From: an uncultured Planctomycetota bacterium
GTDB lineage: Bacteria > Planctomycetota > Planctomycetia > Gemmatales > Gemmataceae
Assembly: GCA_963835245.1 (NCBI GenBank)
Contig: CAWIEZ010000001.1
Location: 156,543-220,542 of the forward strand
Length of the DNA stretch: 64,000 nt
Direction: 5' to 3'
Positions 13,936-46,773 of the stretch are shown here, piece by piece. The number at the start of each line of letters is the position of its first letter. The stretch's first letter is position 1. Under the pieces are notes generated by a model, which saw nothing but the letters and a program-made list of their open reading frames with translations, made no database searches and had not been told where the DNA came from. Both the position numbers and the translations under genes were made by a program.

Positions 13936-14370
13936 AGGGGTTCGGGGACTTGCATTATAGGCATGAGGGGGATGGGAGAAGCGTCGCTCAGGCACTCGCT
14001 TTCGAGGGAACGCGGCGGCATGCGTCGAAGGGACGGGGGAGTCTCTCGACGACCTTCGCGTTCCCCCACACGGACGGGGTAGCCGTGGGCGAAGCGGTGG
14101 GGGAGACCGTTCGCCAACCGTGCGAGTACCCGACCGTCGCTTCCACTTATCGGTCGGGTCGCCTTTGGTAATTGCAAGCACCGTGCCGGAAAACCGTACA
14201 CGGATGCTGAAGGGGATTAAGTGACGTATGGACAAGCGTTTAAGATTTTCCGTTCTCCTCTGTGAATGCCACGGAGAATGATGGACATTTGTAAAAACGA
14301 GTCGGAGCGTGTAACTGCTACCATTCGGCCACAGGTCCATTGCCATTCTTGCCTAATGTAGGCTGTCTTG

Positions 14371-14451
14371 GTAGGGTGGGTCGAGCGCAGCGAGACCCAC
14401 CGGGGAGTGGCGGGTTCCCCGGTGGGTCTCGCTGCGCTCGACCCACCCTAC
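14371..14451. repeat. 36-bp perfect inverted repeat (9-nt loop) in a convergent intergenic region
   Basis: gtagggtgggtcgagcgcagcgagacccaccgggga / loop gtggcgggt / exact reverse complement. Lies at the left edge of the lower-GC island. Confidence 0.9.
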
Positions 14452-14490
14452 AACTGAAGGAGAAGGACCACATCAGCCGAAACAGCCGAA

Positions 14491-14967
14491 TCACGACACC
14501 GAGGGAAGCGGGAGAAAGATTATCGGCGTTCCCTCTTTGATGACCTTCAAGAAGACCGTATCGATCTTACCCTCGCCATATCCATAGAGAACCGGCCGTT
14601 CCTTTTTCAGTAGTTCAGGGAGCCTCTTCTTATCGAGAGGTTTACCATCGCTGCCGATCAGCTTGATTTCCTTGGCATCGTAGGTTTGATCTTCCCAACC
14701 TTCGACTGTCTCGTAAAAAGTGTGTTTTTCTTCAACTTCCTTACCATCTCGAATGATGCGCGTTGCCGTCAGCGAGACATAGCGACTTGTCCAGATTTTG
14801 AGAACGAGTTGACCTTTCTTATTCAGCCGTGCCATCGCCGCCGAAAGATTCCATGATTCTGATAAGACGGGAAACGGTGGAGGCGGTTTGGGAGCAGACG
14901 GCGTATCGGCGCACAGTCCCGTCGCCACGATGGCTCCAAGAATCGCCACGAATAGCATGCGTTTCAT
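14491..14967 (-). CDS. hypothetical secreted protein
   Basis: Start MKRMLFVAILGAIVATGLCADTPSAP (signal). ~158 aa. No domain hit. The 20-bp repeat array lies directly upstream. Confidence 0.5.
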   Translation of the reverse strand: MKRMLFVAILGAIVATGLCADTPSAPKPPPPFPVLSESWNLSAAMARLNKKGQLVLKIWTSRYVSLTATRIIRDGKEVEEKHTFYETVEGWEDQTYDAKEIKLIGSDGKPLDKKRLPELLKKERPVLYGYGEGKIDTVFLKVIKEGTPIIFLPLPSVS

Positions 14968-15016
14968 GTCAGATGCTCCTTTCAGGGGCTTTGCAATAGA
15001 ACTGCCAAAATGACAG

Positions 15017-15092
15017 GCGTTCTCTTGCAGGCCAGTTCGTTTTCTTTCAACTGAATGGGTTCTCTTGCAGATGAACGGGTTTTCTTGCAAGC
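15017..15092. repeat. array A: 4 direct repeats of core TTCTCTTGCA(G/A) at exact 20-bp spacing
   Basis: Cores at 15020, 15040 (degenerate TTTCTTTCAA), 15060, 15080. 27-53 bp upstream of the minus-strand gene start at 14967. Confidence 0.85.
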
Positions 15093-15113
15093 CGCCATCG
15101 GGCAACAGTTTAG

Positions 15114-15440
15114 CTAAGGATTGGCGTTGCCAGCGTGAGGATTCGCCCCTCCCTGCTGTGGAGGCAGAGCTTGCTTCGCAATAATTACGCCCGTAACCAC
15201 TGTCCCGGCTGGCAAAGAGATTTGAGCGCCCCCGTCATTAAAGACGTATGCGTGGGCAAGGGTGATCGTAAGATGAGCGCCAATGGGCAAGTTAGCCGCA
15301 ACGTCATCAACCAGCACTGGACGACTTCCCCCGACCCAGATGTCCAAGGCAATGTTGTAGCGAAACACGGTTTGTTCCCCCTCGCCTAGCTCTAGCCAGC
15401 CAACCCTCGTGGTGGATTGTAGGGGAAAGCTGCGGGACAT
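15114..15440 (-). CDS. hypothetical protein
   Basis: 108-aa ORF in the island. Coding-like but no domain. Confidence 0.35.
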   Translation of the reverse strand: MSRSFPLQSTTRVGWLELGEGEQTVFRYNIALDIWVGGSRPVLVDDVAANLPIGAHLTITLAHAYVFNDGGAQISLPAGTVVTGVIIAKQALPPQQGGANPHAGNANP

Positions 15441-15463
15441 CCCAGCAACGGCTCAGTGGATGC

Positions 15464-15754
15464 TCACCGCCCCGAAAGACGAATCTTGTGCCCGCCTTTG
15501 GTGGTAAACTCCTCGGCGTTTGGCGGCTCGTAGGTCAAGATGGCCTCTCTTGCCAGCATTGCGGCATCTCGAACGCGATCCACGGCCCGGTCCCTATCCA
15601 CGGACCACGGCACGTTCTCAATTACCACCTTGGCGAACGCCTTCGCCGCTTCGTTGATAGCAGCGTATCGTTCTGCGTCCTCTGGCCGAGGGAACTTGCT
15701 GGCAAAATCGCGGTCCAGTTGCTCGATGCGTGTTTCATCAACAGATTTGAACAT
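15464..15754 (-). CDS. hypothetical protein
   Basis: 96 aa. AAGGAG RBS 7 nt upstream of the ATG at 15754. Confidence 0.5.
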   Translation of the reverse strand: MFKSVDETRIEQLDRDFASKFPRPEDAERYAAINEAAKAFAKVVIENVPWSVDRDRAVDRVRDAAMLAREAILTYEPPNAEEFTTKGGHKIRLSGR

Positions 15755-15771
15755 ACTGCTCCTTAAAAAAA

Positions 15772-15796
15772 GAAACGGGCCGGTTAAGGCCCGTTT
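15772..15796 (-). terminator. rho-independent terminator-like hairpin (AAACGGGCC-GGTTAA-GGCCCGTTT) with 7-U tract on the minus strand
   Basis: Palindrome followed (minus orientation) by the TTTTTTT run at 15762-15770. Downstream of the transposase/small-protein operon. Confidence 0.55.
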
Positions 15797-15826
15797 TAAG
15801 AGAGTGTCGTTGGCGATTTTTTGTGA

Positions 15827-16093
15827 CTACTTCACGCGCACGACTACAACCTCTTCGCCGCACCACGGACAGAACCGTATCTCGGTGAGGCCCAAAATGC
15901 AGTTGCCACTCCTCTGCATGTGGTGCGACGTGAAGATGTTCACTTCCCTGCTGGTGGTGCGCCGGTGGCCTTTGACGCCGAAGCCGACAAGGATGTCCCA
16001 CTCGTCCTGCATCTCTCGACAGCAAAAGTGGACAGCGATTTGCTCGTAGACAGTCTCGTAGCGACCACAACCAGATCGGTATGTAACGCGCAT
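15827..16093 (-). CDS. small Cys-rich (zinc-ribbon-like) protein co-transcribed downstream of the SWIM-DDE transposase
   Basis: 88 aa (…HFCCREMQ…CPWCGEE…). GAGGAG RBS overlaps the transposase stop. Start is 12 nt after the transposase stop. Confidence 0.45.
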   Translation of the reverse strand: MRVTYRSGCGRYETVYEQIAVHFCCREMQDEWDILVGFGVKGHRRTTSREVNIFTSHHMQRSGNCILGLTEIRFCPWCGEEVVVVRVK

Positions 16094-16104
16094 GGTGCTA
16101 CTCC

Positions 16105-17379
16105 TCAGTTCAAGAGGGCAGGGACGGCTGGCTTCTCCGCAGGCCAGAACACCGGCTCGACGCCTAACTCGATCTGCGATTGGTGGATGACACAGATGTT
16201 GTGGCAGAGGAACTTGCACAGCACTTCGTTTTTCATCGCCACGTCCGTCCTGCTCCGCACATGGTCGCGGAACTTCGCCTTCACCATGCTGAACGTACTC
16301 TCCGCATTGCTGCGCTGATGGTAATGACTCAGGAAGTCCTCGCGGTGAAGCTGGTAGTACAGGTACATTTTCTCCCACAGGCTTCCTGCCTCACCGGGTT
16401 GGCTGTTGCACTTGAAGGGAATGAAGGCCGTGCCGCCAAGACGCTGCACCAGTTCAAGGTTGTCGTGGCTGAGGTAGCCCTTGTCGGCGGGCACTTCCTT
16501 GACCGTGAAGTTCTTGGCCGTGGTTTTCACGAGGTCTTCAAAGAGCGGACAGTCGTTCGCGTCCCGGTCCAAAATCTCAACCGACGTGACGATGTTCGTC
16601 TTGACGCCGCAGATGGCATGAGCCTTCACCCAATCATGCCCGCTCCGCGTTGTGCCGTACTTCTCGTCGAACCACCGCACGAAGCGGCTGGTGGAGAAGC
16701 CGGTGCTGTCGGGGGCGAAGACGGTTTCGACGGCCCGGAGCGGCAGACTGCTCTGGACGATGAGTTGCTTGAGAAGCGGCGTCATCGGCTCGTATTCGAG
16801 ATAGGCACACACGCTGACGCTGTGCATCTTGTGGGAGAGGTAGCCTTTGGCGTAGGCATGTTTCAGGTCGGTGTCGAAGCGTCGGCTGGAAAAGGTCGTG
16901 TAGACCTTGAGGGCTGAGGCGAACACCATGTCCGACATCTCGGTGCGTTTCCGACCCGTCTTGGGCTGCGGGGCGGGAGGCACGGTGCGGCACAGGTCGA
17001 ACAGGAGCGCTTGAAAGCGGTCCTTCTCGGTCATCTGGGCTTCGTTGTACTTCGGCCAGTCCTGCTTGTAGGTCTTCTTCTCGGTGAACGTGATCGAGCG
17101 GGTTTCCGTCACCGTGCCGTCTGGGTTTTGTTCGCGGCGAATGGTGATTTCGACGGCGTACAGGTGCTTGCACTTGTGACCTTCTTCCTTGTGGTCAGGA
17201 CAGGTGCAGGTACAGTGGGTCGGGTCTACTTCGTACTTTTTGTCGTTCTTGGACTGCGACGGCACGAGCCAGATGCCATCATCGCGGCGCTGAAGCTTGC
17301 AGAGCGCGGCGATGATGATGCCGCGCTCCTCGCGTAGCTTGGCAGACGTGGGCTTGGGGGTGGTGGTTTGAGCGGTCAT
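16105..17379 (-). CDS. IS4/IS5-superfamily DDE transposase with N-terminal SWIM zinc finger (copy 1, intact)
   Basis: SWIM CxCxnCxH (CTCTCPDHKEEGHKCKHLYAV). DDE_Tnp_1 signatures ADKGYLSH and HQRSNAESTFSMVKAKF (R..E..F..K). 424 aa. Confidence 0.8.
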   Translation of the reverse strand: MTAQTTTPKPTSAKLREERGIIIAALCKLQRRDDGIWLVPSQSKNDKKYEVDPTHCTCTCPDHKEEGHKCKHLYAVEITIRREQNPDGTVTETRSITFTEKKTYKQDWPKYNEAQMTEKDRFQALLFDLCRTVPPAPQPKTGRKRTEMSDMVFASALKVYTTFSSRRFDTDLKHAYAKGYLSHKMHSVSVCAYLEYEPMTPLLKQLIVQSSLPLRAVETVFAPDSTGFSTSRFVRWFDEKYGTTRSGHDWVKAHAICGVKTNIVTSVEILDRDANDCPLFEDLVKTTAKNFTVKEVPADKGYLSHDNLELVQRLGGTAFIPFKCNSQPGEAGSLWEKMYLYYQLHREDFLSHYHQRSNAESTFSMVKAKFRDHVRSRTDVAMKNEVLCKFLCHNICVIHQSQIELGVEPVFWPAEKPAVPALLN

Positions 17380-17515
17380 AGCGAAAAATCCCTTTCCGGT
17401 TCACGGCGGGATGCGCTATAATGCTCTTGAGCAGAACGCATTCGGGCGCGACCCGCCTGAGTGTGTCTTGGCCCGCGCTTCTGTTACCAGCAGAGGCGCG
17501 GGCTTTTCTTTCTGC

Positions 17516-17526
17516 CTACATTGTAG
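17516..17526. promoter_or_regulatory. candidate RHH operator palindrome CTACATTGTAG in the transposase/RHH divergent promoter region
   Basis: The same CTACA-N-TGTAG palindrome recurs in the copy-2 divergent region (23030-23040). Related half-sites at 17591-17600 and 22947-22956. Confidence 0.35.
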
Positions 17527-17604
17527 TAAACATCTGTCCACGAATCAATAGCGGTAGACATTTTTTGTTTGACTTTTTGCTACTTTTTGTCTACACTGAG
17601 CGTC

Positions 17605-17814
17605 ATGGTACGACGAAGGAAAGACCCGAAACTCAGGATGGCAAAAGACCTTCGCATCCCCGTTACGGATGAGTTGAAGCGGTTGATTGAGGAAGCAACC
17701 AGCGATGAACCGGAAGGGATGGCGGCTTGGGCGAGGGGTGTTTTACGGGAAGCCGCTCAGAGGAAGGTGTCAGGCCGCGAGCGACCACAGGAGCCGCCCG
17801 ACGAGAAGGCGTAA
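17605..17814 (+). CDS. ribbon-helix-helix (Arc/CopG-like) small DNA-binding protein, divergent from transposase copy 1
   Basis: LRIPVTDELKRLIEEA...WARGVL aligns with LRIRLTEEERAMLDQVA...WARSEL of the 22748..22942 protein. Both sit divergent to a SWIM-DDE transposase. Confidence 0.5.
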   Translation: MVRRRKDPKLRMAKDLRIPVTDELKRLIEEATSDEPEGMAAWARGVLREAAQRKVSGRERPQEPPDEKA

Positions 17815-17875
17815 GCAACTTCGGCTGCGGTCCTTGCGGTCGTGGCAGCGGGCGTGTATGCTGTTGAGCTAGACG

Positions 17876-20128
17876 GTGGCGGTCGGGACAGTCCTCACCG
17901 AGCCGTCTGAGTCGCTTTTCGAGAGGGGCCGAGCGATGGCCCAACGCGAAAGTCCCACTCAGTTCGAGCTTGAGGCAGGCGCTCAAGTTCCCCACACACC
18001 CTATTGGCTCGTTCAGAGCATTGGCAAGGGATACTTCGGGGAAGTCTGGAAGGCCGTCCATCCGACGAGGGGCGAATTATACGCCCTCAAGTTCTGCAAG
18101 AGACGAGAGGCTCTCCCCTCGTTTCGTAACGAGGTACGGCATCTCGACCGGATCAAGAAGGCGGGCACTTTCGAGGGTTTCGTCGTCCTCAAAGAAATCT
18201 TTGACGAAGAGACCCGCGAGTTGCCCTTCGTCGCCTACGAGTACATTGAGGGCGTGGACTTTGGGAAGCTCCTCGAAAAGCGCTTTGCCGAGAGTGGGCG
18301 GTTCACCCCGTTTGAGGCAGCGGAAGTGATCTACGAACTGGCGAGCATCATGGCTCGCATCCACACCCTCAAAGACCCCATCGTCCACCGCGACCTCAAA
18401 CCATCGAATATCCTCCTTCTCAACGACCGACCGCCGTGGCGGTTCAAGATCGCGGACTTCGGACTGGGCGTCTTGGCGGTGGATGAGGCTCGCGCCGAAG
18501 AACTCACTCTGACCGACATCGGGCGCTGGATGCCGGGGGCCGGTACTCTTTTGTATATGTCCTACGAGCAGCGCTACCCTGAGCATGTGGGCGATCTTGG
18601 AAATCCATCCGATGACGTTCATGCGCTCGGAGTGATCTGGTACGAACTACTAACCAAAGGGCTGCACCAAACCTGTCTCCCGTGGACGTGCGCAATCGGA
18701 GAAAAGCCTCGTCTCAAGTGGCCTTTTTGGCCTCCGAGCCTAAGTCCCAAGACCTTCCCTTGGAAACGTCTTCGGAAAATGTTGCTCAAGCGCGGCATGA
18801 CGGAGCCAGAAGCAGACTTGCTTGAGTCCTGCCTGAAACGTCGTCCGCATCGGCCAGAACATGCCGGGGTGCTGGCGGCAAAAATCCGTGAGCTATACCC
18901 GCCACTCCGAGAAGAGGCACGCAAGGACGCTGCCGAACTGGAACGACAACGGCGAACTGGATGTGACTGGCTAGGATGCCTTTATCGGGTTGCCAAGAAG
19001 CAATTGGATACATGGAGCCAAGGTGCAAACCACTCCATCCCAGAAGCACACTGGCTCAAAGGTTTGTGCTTCCAGCATGGCATCGGCATGTACGCCGATC
19101 TCGACAAGGCGCGGGAGTGCTTTAGGTGGGCCTCCATCGCCGAATATCCTAATGCTCGGTGTGACTTGGCACTGCTGGACGCTGAGGATCAACGCGAACA
19201 AGCACTGGAACTTCTCAAGAAGGCTGCGGACCAAGGCCATGCGGAAGCTGCCTTTCGGCTCGCCAAGCTATTGTCAGAAGGCAGAGCGATTGACGTGCTT
19301 CCTTTCGTGCCTTCGGGCGACCCGGATGCTATTGCTGCATTGGTGACATGGAACGGCGAAGACGAAACAGGCACAGACTGTTGGGCAGGGGATCAGCAAC
19401 TCCTCGCACGTTACATTCTCCATTTATGCGACGGAGGAGAAGCACCAGAGCTTCCTATTGGCGTCCAATATGATGAGTTTGAGCGCCCGCCAAACGTGGA
19501 TATATTCGTTCTTGGCTATTCTTCGTGTGGAGTGCCACCCATCCGACTCTTGCTCGATTGTCCCATTGGCGAACTGCTCAATCTGTCGCCAGAAGTCAAT
19601 CATCATCTCGTAGAAGTATTTGGTCGTATGTCAGAAGAAGAGATGAAAGTGCTTCCGCCAAGACTGAAAGACATCTTGTCGCTCACAGAGAAAGAGTATT
19701 CTCTTAAAGGGGGAGCCGAATGCACATTTGCGGCGATGCGAGCGATGCTGGCTCAGTTGTGGTGTGATCCGTGGCTCATTGCGCAGCAGAAGACGAGAGA
19801 GTTCGTTGAGAAGGCTGCAAGCCTTGGATGCGCCAAGGCTCAGTTATGGCTTGCCAAGGTGTGCGATGAACAGGAAAGACCAGTAGAGGCCGAGAAATGG
19901 CTTCGCCTTGTGGCTCGACGTGAGAATTGGGAGGGGACGTGGCAGGGGCAGTTGCAACTCGCCAAACAGTTATTCGCTTTTTTCAAAACCCACGAGAAAA
20001 CAGATGGAGCCAAATGGTGTTTAGACGAGGCTTTTTCATGGTGCGCGCGTGCCAAGACTATCGCAGACGAAGTTGCTTGGATTAGGAGTGGCGGCGATGA
20101 ATTACTCGACAGAATATGGGCAAGTTAG
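17876..20128 (+). CDS. Ser/Thr protein kinase (Hanks-type) fused to C-terminal Sel1/TPR-like repeats
   Basis: Kinase subdomains GKGYFGEV…ALK, HRDLKPSNILL, DFG. C-terminal Sel1-like units (AHWLKGLCFQHGIGMYADLDKARECFRWA; DQGHAEAAFRLAKLL). The start may be the Met at 17936. Confidence 0.8.
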   Translation: MAVGTVLTEPSESLFERGRAMAQRESPTQFELEAGAQVPHTPYWLVQSIGKGYFGEVWKAVHPTRGELYALKFCKRREALPSFRNEVRHLDRIKKAGTFEGFVVLKEIFDEETRELPFVAYEYIEGVDFGKLLEKRFAESGRFTPFEAAEVIYELASIMARIHTLKDPIVHRDLKPSNILLLNDRPPWRFKIADFGLGVLAVDEARAEELTLTDIGRWMPGAGTLLYMSYEQRYPEHVGDLGNPSDDVHALGVIWYELLTKGLHQTCLPWTCAIGEKPRLKWPFWPPSLSPKTFPWKRLRKMLLKRGMTEPEADLLESCLKRRPHRPEHAGVLAAKIRELYPPLREEARKDAAELERQRRTGCDWLGCLYRVAKKQLDTWSQGANHSIPEAHWLKGLCFQHGIGMYADLDKARECFRWASIAEYPNARCDLALLDAEDQREQALELLKKAADQGHAEAAFRLAKLLSEGRAIDVLPFVPSGDPDAIAALVTWNGEDETGTDCWAGDQQLLARYILHLCDGGEAPELPIGVQYDEFERPPNVDIFVLGYSSCGVPPIRLLLDCPIGELLNLSPEVNHHLVEVFGRMSEEEMKVLPPRLKDILSLTEKEYSLKGGAECTFAAMRAMLAQLWCDPWLIAQQKTREFVEKAASLGCAKAQLWLAKVCDEQERPVEAEKWLRLVARRENWEGTWQGQLQLAKQLFAFFKTHEKTDGAKWCLDEAFSWCARAKTIADEVAWIRSGGDELLDRIWAS

Positions 20129-20520
20129 TTCATCGGCGGCGGTAGCTGACTCTGTGACGGGAAGTGCTGTGACAGATTACCCTGCTCCAAACGCTGTTTC
20201 TTGTTGGCGAGGTATTTGTAAACGGGCTGAAAGGCGTTCATTGCTTGACTTGACAACTTTTCCAGTTCTTCCGCGTTCACTTGTTCATCATCAAGCCAAG
20301 CATTTTCAAGCACTCCGTCCAAGTAGGAGAGTTTCTTGTACGTTTCAACCGCCCATTTCAGCGCTTCATCGAGGTTACGCCGGTCTGCTTCTTGTTCCAA
20401 GCGTGCTATATTCTCGCGCGATTGGTTGAATTGTGGCTGTGGCGGTTGCTCCCCCGGCAAGCGGTTCAATGCTTCACGAATGTTCTTTCGGCCCTTCTGC
20501 CAATCTTTGAAATAGCCCAT
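20125..20520 (-). CDS. hypothetical protein
   Basis: 132 aa starting MGYFKDWQKGRKNIREALNR. Coding-like. The ORF-track N-terminal extension overlaps the opposite-strand gene and is not credited. Confidence 0.45.
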   Translation of the reverse strand: MGYFKDWQKGRKNIREALNRLPGEQPPQPQFNQSRENIARLEQEADRRNLDEALKWAVETYKKLSYLDGVLENAWLDDEQVNAEELEKLSSQAMNAFQPVYKYLANKKQRLEQGNLSQHFPSQSQLPPPMN

Positions 20521-20613
20521 AATGCTCCCCAATGACTTTGCAGATATATAGAGCAAGACAGGGTTTTTTTTTGATGAAAGCGCATTTGACCAACCGCCAA
20601 GAGGCCGAGCGCC

Positions 20614-21063
20614 TTGTCCAGCAACAGGGCTTCGGCATCCTCGCGCCAACTCTACCAGCACATCGCGGACTCCAATGCCACCGAATGCACCTTCCACTTG
20701 ATGCCGCTGCCCGCCAAGCAAGTCGAACTGATCGTCAGCGACAACGACTCCCACCGCTTCACGGACCTGAACCACGTCCAAGCGGTCTTCAATGAATTAC
20801 TCATGTTGGCCTACTGCCAGAAGGCCAAACTCGCCACAACGAAGGGCACGGTCGTCTTCACGGAGCAGGGCATGGAAACGGCGCGCCTGCGGACGAACAT
20901 GGGCGCGGAGTTCTGGGCCACACTGGAAGGTGATGCCGAGCGCTACCGGCAGTTGGTGCAGGAGCTAGAGCGGGTGGTGGTGAGGCCGGGCTTACGGTTG
21001 GTTGTCCTTGTCCAAGAAGACGGGACGAGGATCGTCCGTGACGAAGAGGCCAAGGCACAATGA
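20614..21063 (+). CDS. hypothetical protein (possibly starts ~20563 with a frameshift near 20620)
   Basis: 149-aa ORF. The upstream in-frame-shifted segment MKAHLTNRQEAERLVQQQGFGI looks coding. Stop overlaps the next gene (ATGA). Confidence 0.4.
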   Translation: MSSNRASASSRQLYQHIADSNATECTFHLMPLPAKQVELIVSDNDSHRFTDLNHVQAVFNELLMLAYCQKAKLATTKGTVVFTEQGMETARLRTNMGAEFWATLEGDAERYRQLVQELERVVVRPGLRLVVLVQEDGTRIVRDEEAKAQ

Positions 21064-21413
21064 CCTACCCCGTTTACTTCTTGCGCCTCGGCGATGAACT
21101 ACGGGTCGTCTCCTCCCAAAAGGACATCGGCCACACCGACTTCTGGGAACAGACCGTCTCGCACATCGTCGCCAAGCACTACGGTATCCCGCAGCCGAAG
21201 CTGGCGAACCTGCCCTACTGCCAGCGAAGAGGCCGCGTCGTGGGGAATACGGTGTACTACGGCGAACGGTCTGCCCCTGAACTGCTGTGCCTGCTCCGCG
21301 AGGCGGTGGGCAACGATGAACTGGTGTTCTGCCATGACGAACACGAGAAGCGGCTTCGGGAGGACGTGCGGCAGTTCAGGCGGCTGGTGCGCCGAGCAAG
21401 GCAGTCAAGCTAA
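21060..21413 (+). CDS. hypothetical protein
   Basis: 117 aa, translationally coupled to the upstream ORF. No domain recognised. Confidence 0.45.
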   Translation: MTYPVYFLRLGDELRVVSSQKDIGHTDFWEQTVSHIVAKHYGIPQPKLANLPYCQRRGRVVGNTVYYGERSAPELLCLLREAVGNDELVFCHDEHEKRLREDVRQFRRLVRRARQSS

Positions 21414-21634
21414 GGGCTTGCGCTTTTTCTTGGGGCGGGGTACTATATTCAAGTAGAGGCTTGCCGGTTATGCGAACGAGGCTGTAAAAGTGGGACACCC
21501 CCAAGCTCAAGCCGCCCCCGTTGCTATCTATCCCTGCTTAGGGGATTATCGGACATGGGACGGCACGCAATGGTCAGCAAGGGGCGTGTCCTGCCCTCCA
21601 TTGTATCGCATCCGAGTGAGCGGAAAAGCATAAA

Positions 21635-21665
21635 CGCCACGGCTCATCACCGTGGCGTTTCTGAC
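21635..21665 (+). terminator. terminator-like hairpin CGCCACGG-ctcatcac-CCGTGGCG + TTTCT
   Basis: Read from the sequence. Lies downstream of the 21060..21413 gene, immediately before array B. Confidence 0.4.
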
Positions 21666-21757
21666 GTTCTCTTGCAAATTGACGAGTTCTCTTGCAGGTT
21701 CAGGAATTCTGTTGCAACCTGACGGGTTGCCTTGCAAAATGGTCTTCTATTGCAAAG
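21663..21757. repeat. array B: 5 direct repeats (TTCTCTTGCAA / TTCTCTTGCAG / TTCTGTTGCAA / TTGCCTTGCAA / TTCTATTGCAA) at a 20-bp period
   Basis: Cores at 21668, 21688, 21708, 21728, 21745. Same orientation as array A. Confidence 0.9.
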
Positions 21758-21810
21758 CCCCTTTCAGGGAGAAACGGTGAGCGATTCGGATAATTCCTTG
21801 ATAATATCCC

Positions 21811-22004
21811 GATAAGAGCGGCGTTGCAAGGAAACGCCATTCTGCAATAGAACTCTCCCACTTGCAAGAAAACTCCCTCGCCAACCTTATCTACCTGAAC
21901 AGGCGCGCACATCTTAAATAATTCTTCCATTTCTTGCAACCAGTTCTATTGACACCCCAAGAACACTTCTTACAATCAAGAAACAGGAAGAAATGTTCTT
22001 GGGG
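21811..22004. repeat. array B2: further TTGCAAG-type copies in both orientations, the 12-mer CGATAAGAGCGG, and a CCCCAAGAACA…TGTTCTTGGGG hairpin
   Basis: gcgttgcaaggaaacgc (itself a palindrome), cacttgcaagaaaactcc, atttcttgcaacc. The exact 12-mer cgataagagcgg is shared with 26132-26143. Hairpin at 21955-22004. Confidence 0.7.
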
Positions 22005-22222
22005 TCGCTAACCAGTGGACAAGCAGGCCGAGTTCGAGACCATGATCCAGCGGCATCTAACCCGCGCTCACAAGCTCCGCGCGATCCAGCAAATGATCGC
22101 CGAAGACCCCGGTATTGTTCCTGACATACTGGAGATATTGACGACCTCCGCGTGCGCACCCGTCGCCTCCGCGCGCCGAGGCCCGACGCCGCGTTGATGC
22201 CAAGACACAGGCCGAGAAGGTC

Positions 22223-22504
22223 GTGGCCTTCTTCAAGGCAAACGGCAATACGATGGCCTCGGTTCGCCAAATCGCTGACGCAACGGGCCTGACGAGGAAT
22301 ACGGTGAACGCCTTGTTCTACAACAGCAGCCAGAAAGGTCTGTTCAAGTCACTCACGATAGGGAAGAAGCGGAAGTTCTGGCGGCTGAAAGAGGACGAGC
22401 AGGACATGGATAGCGAGATGTCGCTTGAGGAGCTTGCGGAGATGGGCTTCGACGAAAGCGATCTCGATGGCGGTTCGGAGGACACGGACGAGCCAGAGGA
22501 GTAG
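22223..22504 (+). CDS. small winged-helix/HTH-like protein with acidic C-terminal tail (may extend to ~22015 if a frameshift is assumed)
   Basis: SVRQIADATGLTRNTVNALF… HTH-like segment, KKRKFWRL, then a D/E-rich tail. First gene downstream of the repeat arrays. Confidence 0.45.
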   Translation: MAFFKANGNTMASVRQIADATGLTRNTVNALFYNSSQKGLFKSLTIGKKRKFWRLKEDEQDMDSEMSLEELAEMGFDESDLDGGSEDTDEPEE

Positions 22505-22747
22505 CCAGTTGAGCTACGCCATTTTGCGGTCTAAAGAAAGGAGGGCAGCAATGACAAACGAGAGTGGCCGACCGGGTGGCCCACGAACGAAGCAAGGGCG
22601 GTAGGGTAATCCACCAAGATACCCCCTACCGCCCTTGACCCCGGCACGTCAGGCTTGCAGACGGCCTTGACCACACTTGTCGAGGCCCCGGAGATGGTCT
22701 GCACTCCGGGGCCGCTCATATTGATTTTAACGATGCAAGAAACATCG

Positions 22748-22942
22748 TCAAGTCTTTTTTGAGATTTCTTCCAAAGCTTTTTTCGCCAAGGCGATTAGCT
22801 CCGACCGCGCCCAAGTGGACGTATCGAGAGTCCTCGTCTCGGCAACCTGATCCAGCATGGCCCGCTCCTCCTCCGTGAGACGGATGCGCAGGACATTCTC
22901 GCGGGCCTGAGTTTCCAGCTTCTTTTTCCGTGATCCAGCCAT
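22748..22942 (-). CDS. ribbon-helix-helix protein, divergent from transposase copy 2
   Basis: MAGSRKKKLETQARENVLRIRLTEEERAMLDQVAETRT… Homologous to the 17605..17814 protein. ATG at 22942 confirmed by reverse complement. Confidence 0.5.
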   Translation of the reverse strand: MAGSRKKKLETQARENVLRIRLTEEERAMLDQVAETRTLDTSTWARSELIALAKKALEEISKKT

Positions 22943-23029
22943 GAAACACATTGTAGCCACACGCCTACCCCGCCACAAGACCGCGACGATTGTTCTGCCT
23001 ACCAACCTTGAGTGCGCGGTCCAACGTGG

Positions 23030-23040
23030 CTACACTGTAG
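23030..23040. promoter_or_regulatory. candidate RHH operator palindrome CTACACTGTAG
   Basis: Same palindromic motif as 17516-17526. Sits between the divergent RHH and SWIM-DDE genes. Confidence 0.35.
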
Positions 23041-23079
23041 CTATAGTGAACGCGGGTATAGTTATGGCTGGGCCTTCCG

Positions 23080-23767
23080 ATGGACCTCCGAGAGTTAAAG
23101 GGCTTGGAACTGGCGGCGCGGGTGAAAATCACCTACGTCGATGGCATCTGGTACGTTCCCTCGCAATCCGGCAAAGGCAGGTACGAGGTTCGGCTGAGTC
23201 CCAACCCAGAATCCTGCACCTGCGACGACTTCCAGCTTCGCCAGAAGCCATGCAAGCACATTTACGCCGCCCGCAACGTCCGCGAGCGGGAGCATGGCGG
23301 CGAGGCCGTGGTCATCGACACGGACACATTGCCGAAAAAGAAGTCCTCCAAGCAGGACTGGCCGTTGTACAACAAGGCGCAGATGACGGAGTTCAAGCGG
23401 TTCCTCGTCCTCCTCCACGATCTCGTCCAAGGCGTTGAGGAGCCGCCACAGCCGCGCACTGGGCGGCGGCGGACGCTCATGGCCGACATGGTGTACGCTT
23501 CGGCCCTCAAAGTCTACATGACCTTTGCCAGTCGCCGCTTTGACTTCGCCTTGGATTGGGCCAAAGAGAAGGGCTACATCTCGCAAAGGAAGATGCACCC
23601 TGTTAGCGTCTGCGCCTTCCTTGAAAGCGACCTGATGACCCCGGTGCTCCAGAAGCTCATCGTCCAGAGCAGCCTGCCGCTTGTATCCATCGAGAGCATT
23701 TTCGCGCCGGACTCTAGCGGGTTCAGCACGTCGCGGTACGTCCGCTGGTACGACGAGAAGTATGGTG
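23080..23767 (+). pseudogene. SWIM-DDE transposase copy 2, truncated by IS3-family insertion
   Basis: Colinear with copy 1 (about 60 percent identity by eye) through …YVRWYDEKYG, then diverges exactly at the IS3 left terminal inverted repeat (23768). The DDE C-terminal ~180 aa is absent. Confidence 0.7.
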
Positions 23768-23831
23768 TGGACTTCCCCACGATTAGTGGACAGCCAGTTA
23801 AGGGTGTATACTCACCCTGGGAGGTCCAGCA

Positions 23832-24128
23832 ATGGCGAAAACACGACGCACCTACACCCCGGAGTTCAAGGCGGAGGCTGTCAAGCTCGTCACCGAGCAG
23901 GGCTACTCCGTTGCCGAGGCCGCACGCTCCCTCGGCATCTGCGAGAACCTCATCCGCAACTGGAAGCAAACCCTCGAAGCCCACGGGGAACACGCCTTCC
24001 CCGGTCGTGGCAAGCTCTCCCCCTTCGAGGAGGAGAACCATCGCCTCCGCGCTGAGAACAAACGTCTCTTGGCGGAGCGCGACATCCTAAAAAAAGCGGC
24101 GGCGTTCTTCGCCAGGGAGGCGACATGA
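23832..24128 (+). CDS. IS3-family transposase OrfA (HTH)
   Basis: MAKTRRTYTPEFKAEAVKLV…, leucine-zipper-like C-terminus, typical IS3 OrfA. Confidence 0.85.
   Translation: MAKTRRTYTPEFKAEAVKLVTEQGYSVAEAARSLGICENLIRNWKQTLEAHGEHAFPGRGKLSPFEEENHRLRAENKRLLAERDILKKAAAFFAREAT
24089..24096 (+). promoter_or_regulatory. A AAA AAG slippery heptamer for programmed -1 frameshift (orfA to orfB)
   Basis: ctaAAAAAAGcgg, located just before the orfA/orfB overlap. Standard IS3-family mechanism. Confidence 0.6.
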
Positions 24129-25102
24129 CCTACCGCTTCATCGACCAACACAAGGAGCAATGGCCCGTGCACTGGCTTTGTGACACTCTGGAGGTTTCCC
24201 CCGCCAGCTACTATGCCTGGCGGCGATGCCTCCGCAGCGCAGGGGAGCAACGACGCCACATCCTGCTCGTGGAGATCCGCGCCATCCATGCCCAATTCAA
24301 GGCCCGTTACGGCAGCCCGCGCATCCACGCCGAACTGGTGGCCCGCGGCCACGACTGCTGCGTCAACACCGTCGCCAAACTGATGCGGGAGGCCGGTATC
24401 GCTGCGAAAACCGCGCGGAAGTTCCGCTGTACCACCACGGACTCCGACCACGACTTGCCTGTAGCGGAGAACCTCCTGGACCGCCAGTTTGATCCCGCCG
24501 CTGCCAACGAGTCCTGGGTTGCGGACATTACCTACATCCCGACTCGTGAAGGCTGGCTGTACCTGGCCGCCGTCGAGGATCTGTACGCTCGGCGGGTCGT
24601 TGGCTGGACGATGGCCGAACACAGGGAGAGCCGGTTGGTCGTGGACGCCTTGGCGATGGCCGTGCAGCGACGATTGCCGGGCGAGGGTCTGCTGGCGCAC
24701 TCGGATCGAGGCAGCCAGTACGCCAGCGAACATTACCAACTCCTCTTGGCCAAGCATGGGATCACATGCAGCATGAGTCGTCGGGCGGACTGCTGGGACA
24801 ACGCGCCGATGGAGAGCTTTTTCGCGTCGCTGAAGAAGGAACTGGTCCACGACGCCGACTTCGCCACGCGGTTGGAGGCGCGGGCGGCAATATTCGAGTA
24901 CATCGAGGTGTTCTACAATAACCAACGCCGTCACTCCTCGTTGGGATATGTGTCCCGGCGGAGTACGAGCAATCATCTACCCCTTAACTCCGTGTCCACT
25001 TTTCGTGGGGAATTCCATCAAGTCGAACCCAATTGTTCTTGGCGAGGTCCACGTTGTACCACTTCTTCACTTCGGCTTTTGTCACCGGAGATTCTTGAGT
25101 AA
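24125..25102 (+). CDS. IS3-family transposase OrfB (integrase core, DDE)
   Basis: …WVADITYIPT…GWLYLA…SDRGSQY…NAPMESFF… The ORF has no stop inside the right terminal repeat and reads about 28 codons into flanking DNA. Confidence 0.8.
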   Translation: MTYRFIDQHKEQWPVHWLCDTLEVSPASYYAWRRCLRSAGEQRRHILLVEIRAIHAQFKARYGSPRIHAELVARGHDCCVNTVAKLMREAGIAAKTARKFRCTTTDSDHDLPVAENLLDRQFDPAAANESWVADITYIPTREGWLYLAAVEDLYARRVVGWTMAEHRESRLVVDALAMAVQRRLPGEGLLAHSDRGSQYASEHYQLLLAKHGITCSMSRRADCWDNAPMESFFASLKKELVHDADFATRLEARAAIFEYIEVFYNNQRRHSSLGYVSRRSTSNHLPLNSVSTFRGEFHQVEPNCSWRGPRCTTSSLRLLSPEILE

Positions 25103-25373
25103 GGACCGGCTCGACGGCCTTCACGGTGTCGGTCTTCGGCTGCTGGACAAGAACAGCAGTGGGTACAGGAAGTGGCGGGGCCGTTGTAATCGTTTGAGGT
25201 GTTGAGAATAAGTCCTTCACCTTGTTTGCTGGTATCCACTTCGTCAAGCCCTCGCGCCACATCATGTCGGTCGGCAGAAGTTGACCTGATTTCGCAAGCA
25301 TCCGAAGTTCGGTTGATGAAACCGGACCATGCTTGCTCTTGCCGTCTCTCGTGTAAAACCACTCTTGCGCCAT
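24984..25373 (-). CDS. DUF4339/GYF-like domain protein, 3' end replaced by the IS3 terminus
   Basis: MAQEWFYTRDGKSKHGPVSSTELRMLAKSGQLLPTDMMWREGLTKWIP. GGGAGA RBS. The last 11 codons (…GIPHEKWTRS*) are encoded by the IS3 right terminal repeat. Confidence 0.6.
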   Translation of the reverse strand: MAQEWFYTRDGKSKHGPVSSTELRMLAKSGQLLPTDMMWREGLTKWIPANKVKDLFSTPQTITTAPPLPVPTAVLVQQPKTDTVKAVEPVLTQESPVTKAEVKKWYNVDLAKNNWVRLDGIPHEKWTRS

Positions 25374-25783
25374 TGCAGTTCTCCCGGTTGGCGGGGCGCA
25401 TGAAAAAGGAGCGCCGAACACTTGGCCGCTCCAGTGGCCCCCGCCAAGGGGCGCAGACGAACAGCACAAGACCCGACGCCCCTCTTGCGAGGGGCGTGCA
25501 AGCCAAGGGCTGCTTCGTCTGGATACAAGAGCGGTTGCCCGCTCAGGTTGGCGGTTTCACTGGAAGCAGTTCTTGACGCACGCGCGTCAATCAGGTTGTC
25601 CCCGTGGCCCTCGCAACGGTCAAAGCTCGTCGTCCTCCTTCAATGCGCAAAACGGTAATCGGCTGGCACTCGCCAGCCGTCACGATGATAACCGAGCAGA
25701 GAGCACTGTTCAAGAAGCCAGCGAAAAATCGGCTACCGACACTCCTTTATGGAGTACCGAGGCATAAACTACCGGGAGATCTG

Positions 25784-26062
25784 ATGATGAAAAGCAGGTG
25801 CATCATGGAAAAGACGCTGAAAGTGCCGTTCGAGGAGATCAATCTAGTCCGCATTCGCTGCAAACAGTGCGGGGACGCTGCCATCGAGATGCCGCTCTCG
25901 GCACTGGTGAACGGGCCGTTGATGTGTCCGGGGTGCGCGAAGGATTTGCGGAAGTCGGCTGCGAACGTGGACAAAGCGGTGACAGACATAGCGAACGGTA
26001 TTGTAGCTCTGAAGGACAATCCCATGATCGAACTTCAGTTCGTGCTGCCATTCGACCAGTGA
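25784..26062 (+). CDS. small zinc-ribbon protein (CxxC…CxxC)
   Basis: IRCKQCG…LMCPGCAKDL. GGGAGA RBS before the ATGATGAAA. Confidence 0.45.
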   Translation: MMKSRCIMEKTLKVPFEEINLVRIRCKQCGDAAIEMPLSALVNGPLMCPGCAKDLRKSAANVDKAVTDIANGIVALKDNPMIELQFVLPFDQ

Positions 26063-26067
26063 GGTAG

Positions 26068-26144
26068 CTTTGCAAGAAAACTCAGCCGTATGCAAGAGAA
26101 CTCATCGTTTTTCGGACGTTTTCTTGCAACGCCGATAAGAGCGG
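26068..26144. repeat. array C: TTGCAAG-type copies (2 on bottom strand, 20 bp apart; 1 on top) plus the CGATAAGAGCGG 12-mer
   Basis: ctttgcaagaaaactc (26068), gtatgcaagagaactc (26088), cgttttcttgcaacg-ccgataagagcgg (26117-26144). Confidence 0.8.
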
Positions 26145-26197
26145 AAGAAACCACTTCAATTTGCTCCTCACCACAGGCCATTCCCACGCTTTCTTCT

Positions 26198-26314
26198 CGT
26201 TCCCAAGCTCTGCTTGGGAACGCTGGGCGAGAAGCTCCGCTTCCCGTCCCACGCAGCGGCCAGCCGCGAAGCAGAGCTTCGCAACCGTGCGTTCCCAAGC
26301 TCAGCTTGGGAACG
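26198..26314. repeat. REP-like element family F1 (three hairpins, ~120 bp): CGTTCCCAAGCTCTGCTTGGGAACG … CGTTCCCAAGCTCAGCTTGGGAACG
   Basis: Outer hairpins at 26198-26222 and 26290-26314, with a central weaker inverted repeat. The same architecture (ACGC/GCGT in place of AAGC/GCTT) is at 46584-46693. Confidence 0.85.
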
Positions 26315-26498
26315 AGAGAGCAAGAGCCACCCCCAGAATCGGCGCAGGCACCCTGCCGCTCGCGGAGTTGATTGCACCACTGGCGAACGAGTGCGGCTCG
26401 GCATAGGATGGCAGGCGCGGTTCGGAGTAAAGTCAGTTATCCGGCCAGTACCCCCTTCGATATTCCGTCCCGCCCTGTTCCACAAGGGAGACGCCAAC

Positions 26499-27867
26499 GT
26501 GCCAGTCCTCTTCTCGTGTCCTTCGTGTTTTCCACTCCTCTGCGGGAGCGTGGCGCTCGCGGCGTGCCTCGTCGTCCCGTCCGCCAGTTCCGCCGCCCCG
26601 CCGCCCAATGTTGTCTTCATTCTCGCGGACGATCTCGGCTACGGGGATCTGGGCTGCTATGGGCAAAAGCTCATTCAAACGCCGAACCTGGATCGGTTGG
26701 CGGCAGGGGGAATGCGCTTCACGCAGGCTTACGCCGGCGCTACGGTGTGCGCGCCGTCGCGCTGTTCCCTGATGACGGGCCGGCACAACGGACACGCCTA
26801 CATCCGCGGCAATCGAGAGATCAAGCCGGAGGGTCAAGTGCCCATGCCGGCGAACACGTTCACCGTGGCCCACTTGATGAAACGAGCCGGCTACAGTACA
26901 GGCATCATCGGCAAATGGGGTCTCGGCCGCCCCGGCTCCGACAGCACGCCGGACAAAATGGGATTCGATTATTTCTTTGGCTACAACTGTCAACGACTAG
27001 CCCACGAGTATTACCCGGAGTACCTCTGGCGCAACCACGAAAAAGTCATGCTCAACGGCCGGAAATACTCGCACGACCTGATGGCCGATGAGGCACTGGA
27101 GTTTATACGGCGGCACCAGACGAAGCCATTCTTCCTTTATCTCGCCTTCACCATCCCGCACGCCAAGTTGCAAGTGCCGGACCTTGGACCATACGCCAAA
27201 GAGTCCTGGCCGGACAACCTAAAGAAATTGGCCGCCATGATTACGCGGATGGACCGCGACGTAGGCCGGCTGATGGCGCTGTTGAAAGAACTCCAGTTGG
27301 ACGGACGGACGCTCGTGTTTTTCGCCAGCGATAACGGCGCGGCTTATCAGGACAAGTTGTTCAATCATTCCGGGCCGCTGCGTGGGTTCAAGCGCGATAT
27401 GTACGAAGGCGGCATCCGCGCCGGTCCTCGCGTACTGGCCCGGCCACATCCAACGAGGGGCGGTGAACGAACAAGTTTGGGCGTTCTGGGATGTTCTGCC
27501 AACCTTGGCCGCACTGACGGGGCAACGACTGGACGCGGAGGGAGACGGCATTTCCATTCTGCCGGCGCTCTTGGAAAACAAAACGATCCCCCATCCGCCA
27601 CTGTACTGGGAGTTCCACGAGCGGGGATTCGACCAGGCCGCTCGCATCGGCGATTGGAAGGCCGTCCGCCGAGACGGGCCGAAAAGTCCCATCGAACTGT
27701 ACGATCTGAAAACGGATAGCGGCGAAAAACACGATGTTGCCGTCCAACACCCCGATGTGGTGAAACGATTCGCGGACTACTTCAAGACCGTGCGCACGGA
27801 TTCCGAACTGTGGCCCGTCCGCGAAGCCGTCAAAAAGCAATCTCCAGCCAAGGGGAGCAAGCCATGA
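26499..27867 (+). CDS. arylsulfatase-family sulfatase (secreted); apparent indel near 27417-27421
   Basis: GTG start with AAGGGAG RBS. Signal peptide. Sulfatase signature CAPSRCSLMTGR, DDLGYGDLGCYG. The frame switches from 26214.. to 27382.. within EGGIRA|PVLAYWPGH. Confidence 0.8.
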
Positions 27868-46540: not shown

Positions 46541-46583
46541 GTGCAAAATCCGAAAACAAGGCGGGAAACATCTCATTCATCCT

Positions 46584-46693
46584 CGTTCCCACGCTCCGCG
46601 TGGGAACGCACGTCTGGACGCTCTGCGTCCCGTACCGCCGAAACGCGACGCGGAGCGTCGCCTGCTTGCGTTCCCACGCGGAGCGTGGGAACG
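46584..46693. repeat. REP-like element family F1, second locus: CGTTCCCACGCTCCGCGTGGGAACG … CGTTCCCACGCGGAGCGTGGGAACG
   Basis: Outer hairpins at 46584-46608 and 46669-46693, with a central GACGCTCTGCGTC…GACGCGGAGCGTC inverted repeat. Lies in the divergent intergenic region between the permease and pepF. Confidence 0.85.
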
Positions 46694-46773
46694 AGAAGGC
46701 GGCGAACATCTCATTTGATATTATGCCTTTGAATTGCTTTCGGATTTCGGATTTTGAATTGAAGGATCAAACC

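Follow-up and report, generated by a model that had tools for sequence, protein, structure and literature searches.

What does a direct repeat with a strict 20-bp period mark when it is gathered in three short clusters of a planctomycete genome? The clusters in question lie between positions 15,017 and 26,144 of a 64,000-nucleotide stretch from an uncultured bacterium of the Gemmataceae (contig CAWIEZ010000001.1; this whole stretch is called the window below). A preliminary description had placed them at the left edge, middle and right edge of one genomic island, with replication iterons, transposase-binding sites of a Tn7/Mu-like element or operator arrays as candidate explanations. We found that the three clusters are the four ends of two elements, named here Element 1 (14987-21759) and Element 2 (21820-26133), and not the left, middle and right of a single island. 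The arrays very probably represent the terminal and subterminal repeats of two related transposons of an IS903-related family that inserted independently of each other, and they form putative sites for several protomers of the transposase.

To locate all copies of the repeat, the window was scanned for TTCTCTTGCAA with at most two mismatches, using 100 dinucleotide-preserving shuffles as a control. The scan returned 35 such 11-mers against 14.0 +/- 3.6 in the shuffles, none of which (0/100) reached 35. Eighteen of the 35 fall in three short stretches (14991-15090, 21667-21939 and 26070-26129) that cover about 430 bp together. The remaining 17 are scattered singles at the chance rate, so that within the window the motif is not a scattered genome-wide site. 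Start-to-start spacings in the clusters are 20/20/20, 20/20/20/18, 18/20 and 20/29 bp, with the copies placed as follows.

15020, 15040, 15060 and 15080, plus strand: the copies of array A
14991-15001, inverted relative to array A: a fifth copy at this array
21667, 21687, 21707, 21727 and 21745, plus strand: the first five copies of array B
21824, 21842 and 21862, minus strand: the next three copies of array B
21929, plus strand: the last copy of array B
26070 and 26090, minus strand, and 26119, plus strand: the copies of array C

The periodic repeats reported earlier are therefore real, with some corrections to their positions. The four copies of array A stand as described, and the inverted copy beside them had been overlooked. 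The five copies of array B are present, the first four starts having been given 1 nt too high. In array C, the copy at 26119 was correct and the two listed at 26068 and 26088 start 2 nt further on.

Comparison with related elements fixed the exact start of each terminus in the window. Array B consists of two distinct ends, placed back to back at 21667-21759 and 21820-21872. Array A pairs with the first half of array B and the second half of array B with array C. Neither the treatment of array B as one unit nor the suggestion that A and C are inverted ends of one element holds, and the placement of the clusters is indeed non-random, since they coincide with element boundaries. Element 1 comprises the following parts.

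14978-14986: left copy of the target-site duplication, CCTTTCAGG; the identical 9-mer stands at 21760-21768, and both abut the termini
14987-21759, minus strand: Element 1, an intact IS903-like transposon of 6,773 bp with a 15-bp terminal inverted repeat, a 9-bp duplication and an intact transposase
14987-15001, plus strand: terminal inverted repeat of the transposase-downstream end, GGCTTTGCAATAGAA, which holds the terminal motif copy
15002-15016: short palindrome with an A/T centre, CTGCCAAAATGACAG, flagged as a hairpin, which separates the terminal repeat from the nearest inverted subterminal site
15020-15030, 15040-15050, 15060-15070 and 15080-15090, plus strand: array A, made up of four subterminal sites that face the opposite way to the terminal copy, with offsets of 34, 54, 74 and 94
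16105-17379, minus strand: transposase of 424 aa with an N-terminal SWIM zinc finger and an IS4/IS5-type DDE domain
21667-21677, 21687-21697, 21707-21717 and 21727-21737, plus strand: first half of array B, made up of four subterminal sites that point the same way as the terminal copy, with offsets of 84, 64, 44 and 24
21745-21759, minus strand: terminal inverted repeat of the transposase-upstream end, TTCTATTGCAAAGCC on the plus strand, identical with the fifth copy of array B
21760-21768: right copy of the target-site duplication, CCTTTCAGG

The terminal inverted repeats of Element 1 (GGCTTTGCAATAGAA) are perfect over 15 bp, and a repeat search returned an 18-nt perfect inverted pair at 14984-15001 / 21745-21762. 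With the transposase gene on the minus strand, 14987 is the transposase-downstream end and 21759 the transposase-upstream end. Element 2 has the same construction.

21811-21819: left copy of the target-site duplication, GATAAGAGC, the core of a 12-mer
21820-26133, plus strand: Element 2, the second family member, of 4,314 bp, with termini GGCGTTGCAAGGAAACG / GGCGTTGCAAGAAAACG, a 9-bp duplication and the end geometry of Element 1
21820-21834, with 21842-21852 and 21862-21872, plus strand: transposase-upstream end, consisting of the terminal repeat and two same-direction sites (the sub-array earlier called B2)
21929-21939, plus strand: extra inverted motif copy at offset 110 of the transposase-upstream end
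26070-26080 and 26090-26100, an 18-bp spacer, and 26119-26133, plus strand: array C, the transposase-downstream end, consisting of two inverted sites and the terminal repeat
26134-26142: right copy of the target-site duplication, GATAAGAGC

The ends of Element 2 read GGCGTTGCAAG(G/A)AAACG, its termini match at 16 of 17 positions, and the repeat search returned a 17/18 inverted pair at 21819-21836 / 26117-26134. An exact 12-mer had been noticed in both B2 and array C; CGATAAGAGCGG is present at both 21810-21821 and 26133-26144, and it consists of the target duplication GATAAGAGC and neighbouring bases that match by coincidence. An inverted copy like that at 21929 occurs at offset 110 in one relative (L026) and at offset 119 in another (L066).

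We then turned to related genomes, a search that the preliminary description had proposed. In the protein collection, a search at E <= 1e-10 placed relatives of the Element 1 transposase in 5,322 clusters, which genome annotation names only 'transposase'. A genome scan with the transposase yielded 79 loci (given L numbers), mostly from Gemmataceae and other Planctomycetota, with some from Acidobacteriota and Haliangiales. Boundaries at these loci were sought without constraint on the end sequence; the search asked for a 9-bp duplication and for an inverted repeat that matched exactly over an 8-mer and had no more than 3 mismatches over 16 positions. This unbiased search gave a candidate element in 33 of the 79 loci, 2.7-6.2 kb in length, and 32 of the 33 start with GGC(T/C)TTG; about 30 perfect 9-bp duplications were found among the relatives. 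Furthermore, identical copies occupy different sites within genomes (L007/L008/L020, L034-L037, L043/L046 and L047/L048). Their alignment gives sharp boundaries that delimit elements of 2.7-4.7 kb, each starting and ending with GGCTTTGC. Most of these copies have their own, differing, perfect 9-bp duplication (L034-L037 and L046 are without one), which is direct evidence of transposition in the family. Arrays comparable to those of the window lie at the ends of 28 elements. An all-against-all comparison of the open reading frames (ORFs) of these 28 showed that cargo is highly variable and that the transposase alone is universal.

Alignment of the ends of the 28 elements by position, oriented by the transposase gene, revealed a simple rule. 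At each end, the terminal repeat itself contains one motif copy, with its start at position 5-6 (the site spans 5-16). The transposase-upstream end carries 2-5 further copies of the 11-bp motif, with same-direction copies at 24 and 44 and, in the subclade that resembles the window elements, also at 64 and 84. The further copies of the transposase-downstream end point in the opposite direction and stand at 34 and 54, and in the same subclade also at 74 and 94. Both window elements obey this rule exactly, Element 1 being read on the minus strand. The wider gap at the downstream end is often filled by a short palindrome with an A/T centre. Palindromes like CTGCCAAAATGACAG occur at the same offset in the right ends of L001, L060, L028 and L066, with TGCCATTTTGGCA in L001 and L060; the palindrome at 15002-15016 could be a bend or a host-factor site.

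The sequence of the sites follows a different course from their positions. The first five bases, GGCTT, are conserved, and the motif that follows is element-specific: TGCAAGAGAA in the window, and TGCACCACGGAA, TGCACAACAGAA, TGCACATTTA, TGACAC or TGCCCATAAA in other elements. In the fixed register, identity between sites is 0.57 within an element and 0.38 between elements, against 0.21-0.29 in shifted registers. Such conserved geometry with drifting specificity is the signature of protein-DNA recognition that co-evolves within each element. Combinations of terminal and subterminal motif also appear to reassort between elements, which hints at two DNA-recognition modules; the terminus may, for example, be read by IS903-like N-terminal helices and the arrays by the SWIM module.

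The enzyme that these elements share was classified by profile comparison. The Element 1 transposase matches the Pfam models SWIM (1.3e-5) and DDE_Tnp_1 (PF01609; 4.4e-20, 72.7 bits against a cutoff of 23). The SWIM CxCx9CxH, the DDE_Tnp_1 triad D224, D299 and E360, and Y353, R356 and K367 of the associated Y-x2-R-x3-E-x6-K signature are invariant in 20 homologues, so that the protein has the features that define DDE_Tnp_1. Its best NCBIfam model is the IS903-type NF033579, matched at profile positions 108-287 only and with 94.6 bits, below the cutoff of 140; the proteins of IS903 and ISVa2 score 353 and 386 bits. Comparison by hhalign of residues 105-376 of the window-family profile with residues 23-290 of the translated IS903 ORF gave a probability of 88.9% (E 2.4e-6), with aligned blocks at N-W-x-Y-N, DSTG, ADxxY and R-x3-E-x6-K. 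Among plasmids, tblastn detected nothing but distantly similar transposases of the IS5 family, ISPko1 and ISVa2 among them, at 22-26% identity. The AlphaFold2 model was confident only at residues 10-210 (mean pLDDT, the predicted local distance difference test, 58) and poor in the catalytic half, and Foldseek gave no match in the PDB with E below 1.

From these features a mode of action can be proposed, in which several transposase protomers would bind the terminal and subterminal sites and the 20-bp phasing would put them on one face of the DNA. The asymmetric multi-protomer complex formed at each end could then distinguish left from right for synapsis and cleavage, and would work like the multi-site ends of Mu, Tn7 or Tn5053, with an IS5-type enzyme. 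The terminal site has to be recognised by the transposase, and in the window elements it shares its motif with the subterminal sites. Since the transposase is the sole protein found in all elements and a small ribbon-helix-helix (RHH) gene that often accompanies it is missing from 12 of the 28, occupation of the sites by the transposase is the most economical reading; both this binding and the role of the arrays are inferred.

Several observations weigh against this view. In four relatives (L010, L031, L032 and L008) the subterminal motif (e.g. TGAAACGAAA) is unrelated to the motif of the terminal repeat (TTGCTCCTAAA or TTGCCATTTTT), so one DNA-binding specificity cannot explain every element, and recognition of the arrays in such relatives may fall to another domain or another protein. 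Domain-wise transposase identities for these four showed no clear pattern with their motifs. Rank correlations between motif similarity and domain similarity were weak, reaching at most 0.41 (subterminal motif with catalytic domain) and no more than 0.24 for the SWIM and middle domains. As for the window elements themselves, the empty site was reconstructed (...GATGCTCCTTTCAGG-GAGAAACGG...ATATCCCGATAAGAGC-GGAAGAAACC...), and none was recovered for either element; the exact 24-nt junction with Element 1 removed was not found in the metagenome collection. Element 1 is also apparently single-copy in its own genome, and its own activity is therefore only putative. Finally, neither a SWIM-bearing IS5/IS903-like family nor multi-site IS5 ends were found described in the full-text literature, a search outside which ISfinder lay, so that the family may already be named.

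Among the competing explanations, the one that fares best makes the arrays operators for the RHH protein encoded by the elements or for a helix-turn-helix (HTH) protein of Element 2, governing transcription at the ends. Three genes come into question.

17569-17814, plus strand: small putative RHH gene of Element 1, first gene of the cargo operon and oriented away from the transposase gene
22748-23005, minus strand: putative RHH gene of Element 2, divergent from the transposase
22223-22504, plus strand: gene with a weak HTH match, 93 aa, Element 2 cargo or regulation, outside the arrays

RHH proteins typically bind tandem short repeats. An RHH gene, whose relatives give only sub-threshold NikA-like, TacA or DUF6290 matches, lies divergently beside the transposase gene in 16 of the 28 elements, both window elements included. 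The subterminal motif that differs from the terminal one in some relatives would suit a second DNA-binding protein, and TTGCAA resembles a -35 hexamer and is used by one outward promoter-like site. However, the other 12 array-bearing elements have no RHH gene of this family. One of them is L001, whose transposase is 79% identical to that of Element 1 and which has the longest arrays, with 5-6 sites per end. Moreover, the HTH gene is unconserved in other elements, the intergenic regions between RHH and transposase genes in both window elements hold no motif copy, and the offsets are fixed to the termini and not to any gene. We thus consider it improbable that the arrays are primarily operators, a role that the preliminary description had entertained; as a secondary function, operation by RHH or HTH proteins is possible.

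Iterons of a replication origin of the plasmid or integrative and conjugative element (ICE) type, or a partition site within a genomic island, had also been proposed. The 20-bp period and the 4-5 direct copies do resemble iteron arrays, a likeness in spacing only. Pfam and NCBIfam scans of the ORFs of 14491-26062 found no Rep, ParA/ParB or conjugation genes. The arrays are paired, with a constant spacing to terminal inverted repeats that have 9-bp duplications on their outer sides, and relatives of 2.7 kb with essentially a transposase only carry them in several chromosomal copies. An origin or partition function is accordingly exceedingly unlikely. Equally negligible is the idea that the clusters arose by chance or serve a generic regulator of the host, in favour of which only the shortness of the motif speaks, given the excess over all shuffles, the single, chance-rate copies elsewhere in the window, the 18 copies at exact 18/20/29-bp spacings and the recurrence of the same geometry with different motifs in other genomes.

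With the arrays read as transposon ends, the rest of the region can be assigned. In Element 1, the genes besides the transposase and RHH genes are cargo.

15114-15440 (108 aa) and 15464-15754 (96 aa), minus strand: two small cargo ORFs, unconserved in other elements
17876-20128, plus strand: cargo Ser/Thr kinase with TPR/Sel1 repeats
20614-21063 (149 aa) and 21060-21413 (117 aa), plus strand: cargo ORFs

No known family was found for the 149-aa and 117-aa ORFs that follow the kinase. The kinase matched candidate anti-phage models (mad6, 4.8e-34, and PD-T4-6) within its kinase domain only, and a search for defence systems with PADLOC matched nothing besides this generic domain. Other family members have toxin-antitoxin-like cargo and not a kinase operon, such as a HigB/HigA-like pair (L036:8153-8979) and a metallopeptidase with an XRE protein (L014:1345-2826; both in element coordinates). 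A signal-peptide/lipoprotein-like gene (14491-14967, minus strand) has Element 1 inserted 11 bp upstream of its ATG, just outside its AGGAGC ribosome-binding site, and transcription of this gene must now come from within or through the Element 1 end. A 36-bp perfect inverted repeat at 14371-14451 lies directly downstream of the same gene.

Element 2 is inactivated, its transposase being cut by an insertion sequence (IS) of the IS3 family and its C-terminal half missing.

21949-21976, plus strand: near-consensus promoter-like site, TTGACA-16-TACAAT
21955-21965 (CCCCAAGAACA) and 21994-22004 (TGTTCTTGGGG): 11-bp perfect inverted repeat that overlaps the promoter-like site
23080-23766, plus strand: transposase remnant, with the SWIM and N-terminal half only
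23768-25017, plus strand: IS3-family insertion sequence interrupting Element 2, with 37-bp imperfect inverted repeats, TG...CA ends, an HTH_Tnp_1 orfA and an rve orfB
25604-26062, plus strand: cargo ORF of 152 aa with CxxC...CxxC

The remnant shares 56% identity with the Element 1 transposase over residues 15-242 of the latter. The C-terminal half was not found downstream of the IS3-family insertion, even at E = 100, and the flanks of the insertion (GTG and TCA) show no 3-bp duplication; together these point to a likely deletion adjacent to the insertion. The frame of its orfB extends about 85 bp beyond the right inverted repeat. The 11-bp inverted repeat at 21955-22004 is probably the operator of the 22223-22504 gene itself, unrelated to the arrays. 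The ORFs downstream of the two window transposases showed no mutual similarity; they are cargo and not conserved parts. To the right of Element 2, REP-like palindromic units CGTTCCCAAGCTNNGCTTGGGAACG occupy 26195-26317, with a related copy at 46582-46698, about 20 kb off. No Rfam family was found in 14000-27000.

The neighbourhood of the elements was also surveyed for further termini. Copies of the cognate motif are 6.5-fold enriched within 200 bp outside element ends. Of 56 ends, 8 have a further terminus of the family at a distance of exactly one 9-bp duplication, the background of such an 8-mer being 0.0027 per position.

L060 (8144-12489): abutting neighbour terminus on both sides
L055, L064, L070, L051, L066 and L041: abutting neighbour terminus on one side each

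At L060, L064, L070 and L051 the neighbouring terminus belongs to another element, divergent but complete, that encodes a transposase of its own; at L066 and L041 there is only a solo or degenerate terminus. This suggests that a terminus-like target sequence attracts insertion into the adjoining 9 bp. The two window elements, with termini 60 bp apart (21760-21819 between), the same motif class and transposases 56% identical, fit the tendency to cluster, and not exact abutment. It is conceivable, if doubtful, that an IS903-like clade acquired a SWIM module together with phased, end-specific arrays that form a multi-protomer transpososome in the style of Mu and Tn7, and that end recognition directs newcomers to the 9 bp immediately beyond the terminus of a family member already in place, piling members head-to-tail into cargo islands.

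The 11-kb region is in this way accounted for by two transposons, one intact and one dead, with a kinase operon and other cargo. IS4/IS5-type enzymes are thought to act on single-site ends, with Tn5, Tn10 and IS903 as models, and a clade with strictly phased, left/right-asymmetric multi-site ends would be a natural system for higher-order complexes of such enzymes. Its fast motif divergence under fixed geometry makes it informative on the evolution of end specificity, and the tendency to insert at a distance of exactly one target duplication from the terminus of a relative points to a simple way in which transposons could come to cluster. In practice, the GGCTTTG terminus, the 9-bp duplication and the 6/24/44 versus 6/34/54 rule allow elements and their cargo to be delimited in Planctomycetota and Acidobacteriota.

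How do these elements compare with known systems? The closest is the IS903 group. The IS903 terminus is quoted as GGCTTTGTTGAATAAATC (PMC8477213). Annotated records give GGCTTTGTTGAATAAATC for IS903 and GGCTTTGTTGCTTAAATCG for ISVa2, both beginning GGCTTTGTTG, and ISVa2 is flanked by a 9-bp duplication, CCTCTGAAC. ISPko1 belongs to the IS903 group, and a 9-bp direct repeat is listed for every IS of this group, each of about 1,050 bp (PMC3281130, Table 2). Terminal inverted repeats of about 15-27 bp beginning GGC(TTTG) mark this group; the window elements have such repeats, and 32 relatives begin GGC(T/C)TTG. The 9-bp target duplication is shared too, being present in the window elements and about 30 relatives; both groups also use an IS4/IS5-type DDE transposase with NF033579 as the best model. 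In contrast, the window transposase falls under the NF033579 cutoff (94.6 versus 140), at 22-26% identity, and has an added N-terminal SWIM extension of roughly 100 aa. An IS903-group element measures about 1.05 kb, encodes a transposase of 307 aa and has a single site at each end, a format that the window family does not share: its members span 2.7-6.8 kb, carry cargo and often an RHH gene, and have 3-6 sites per end (2-5 of them subterminal), with the two ends arranged differently. Judged by sequence comparison, the window elements form a sister lineage, distantly related to the IS903 group of IS5, and fall outside that group by the curated criterion. The family is large and apparently an unnamed and undescribed IS903-like clade with phased multi-site ends.

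The preliminary description, in proposing subterminal transposase sites, was right in kind and wrong in naming a Tn7/Mu-like element, as the transposase is an IS903-like DDE_Tnp_1 enzyme with a SWIM finger. The ends do resemble those of Mu, Tn7 and Tn5053 (Tn402), with several sites per end, left and right ends that differ in number and arrangement, and cargo. These systems use RNase-H-fold transposases of the rve/Mu type, the helpers MuB, TnsC and TniB, and 5-bp duplications, whereas the window elements have a single IS5-type DDE_Tnp_1 enzyme, no AAA+ gene and 9-bp duplications. Membership in this group was rejected on the same grounds, the only rve protein being that of the unrelated IS3-family insertion. 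PIF/Harbinger transposases are IS5-related and rely on subterminal repeats, which in Harbinger are bound by a separate Myb-like protein; Mutator transposases have a SWIM finger C-terminal to an IS256-like catalytic domain and use subterminal binding sites. The subterminal sites and SWIM finger of the window family resemble these eukaryotic arrangements by analogy only.

A further parallel is offered by the transporter IS, IS-like elements with passenger genes in the IS231 group of IS4 (PMC2266710). There, too, an IS-type transposase and inverted repeats bracket variable genes between one end and the transposase. In the window family, by contrast, the cargo is flanked by repeat arrays and the enzyme is of another family.

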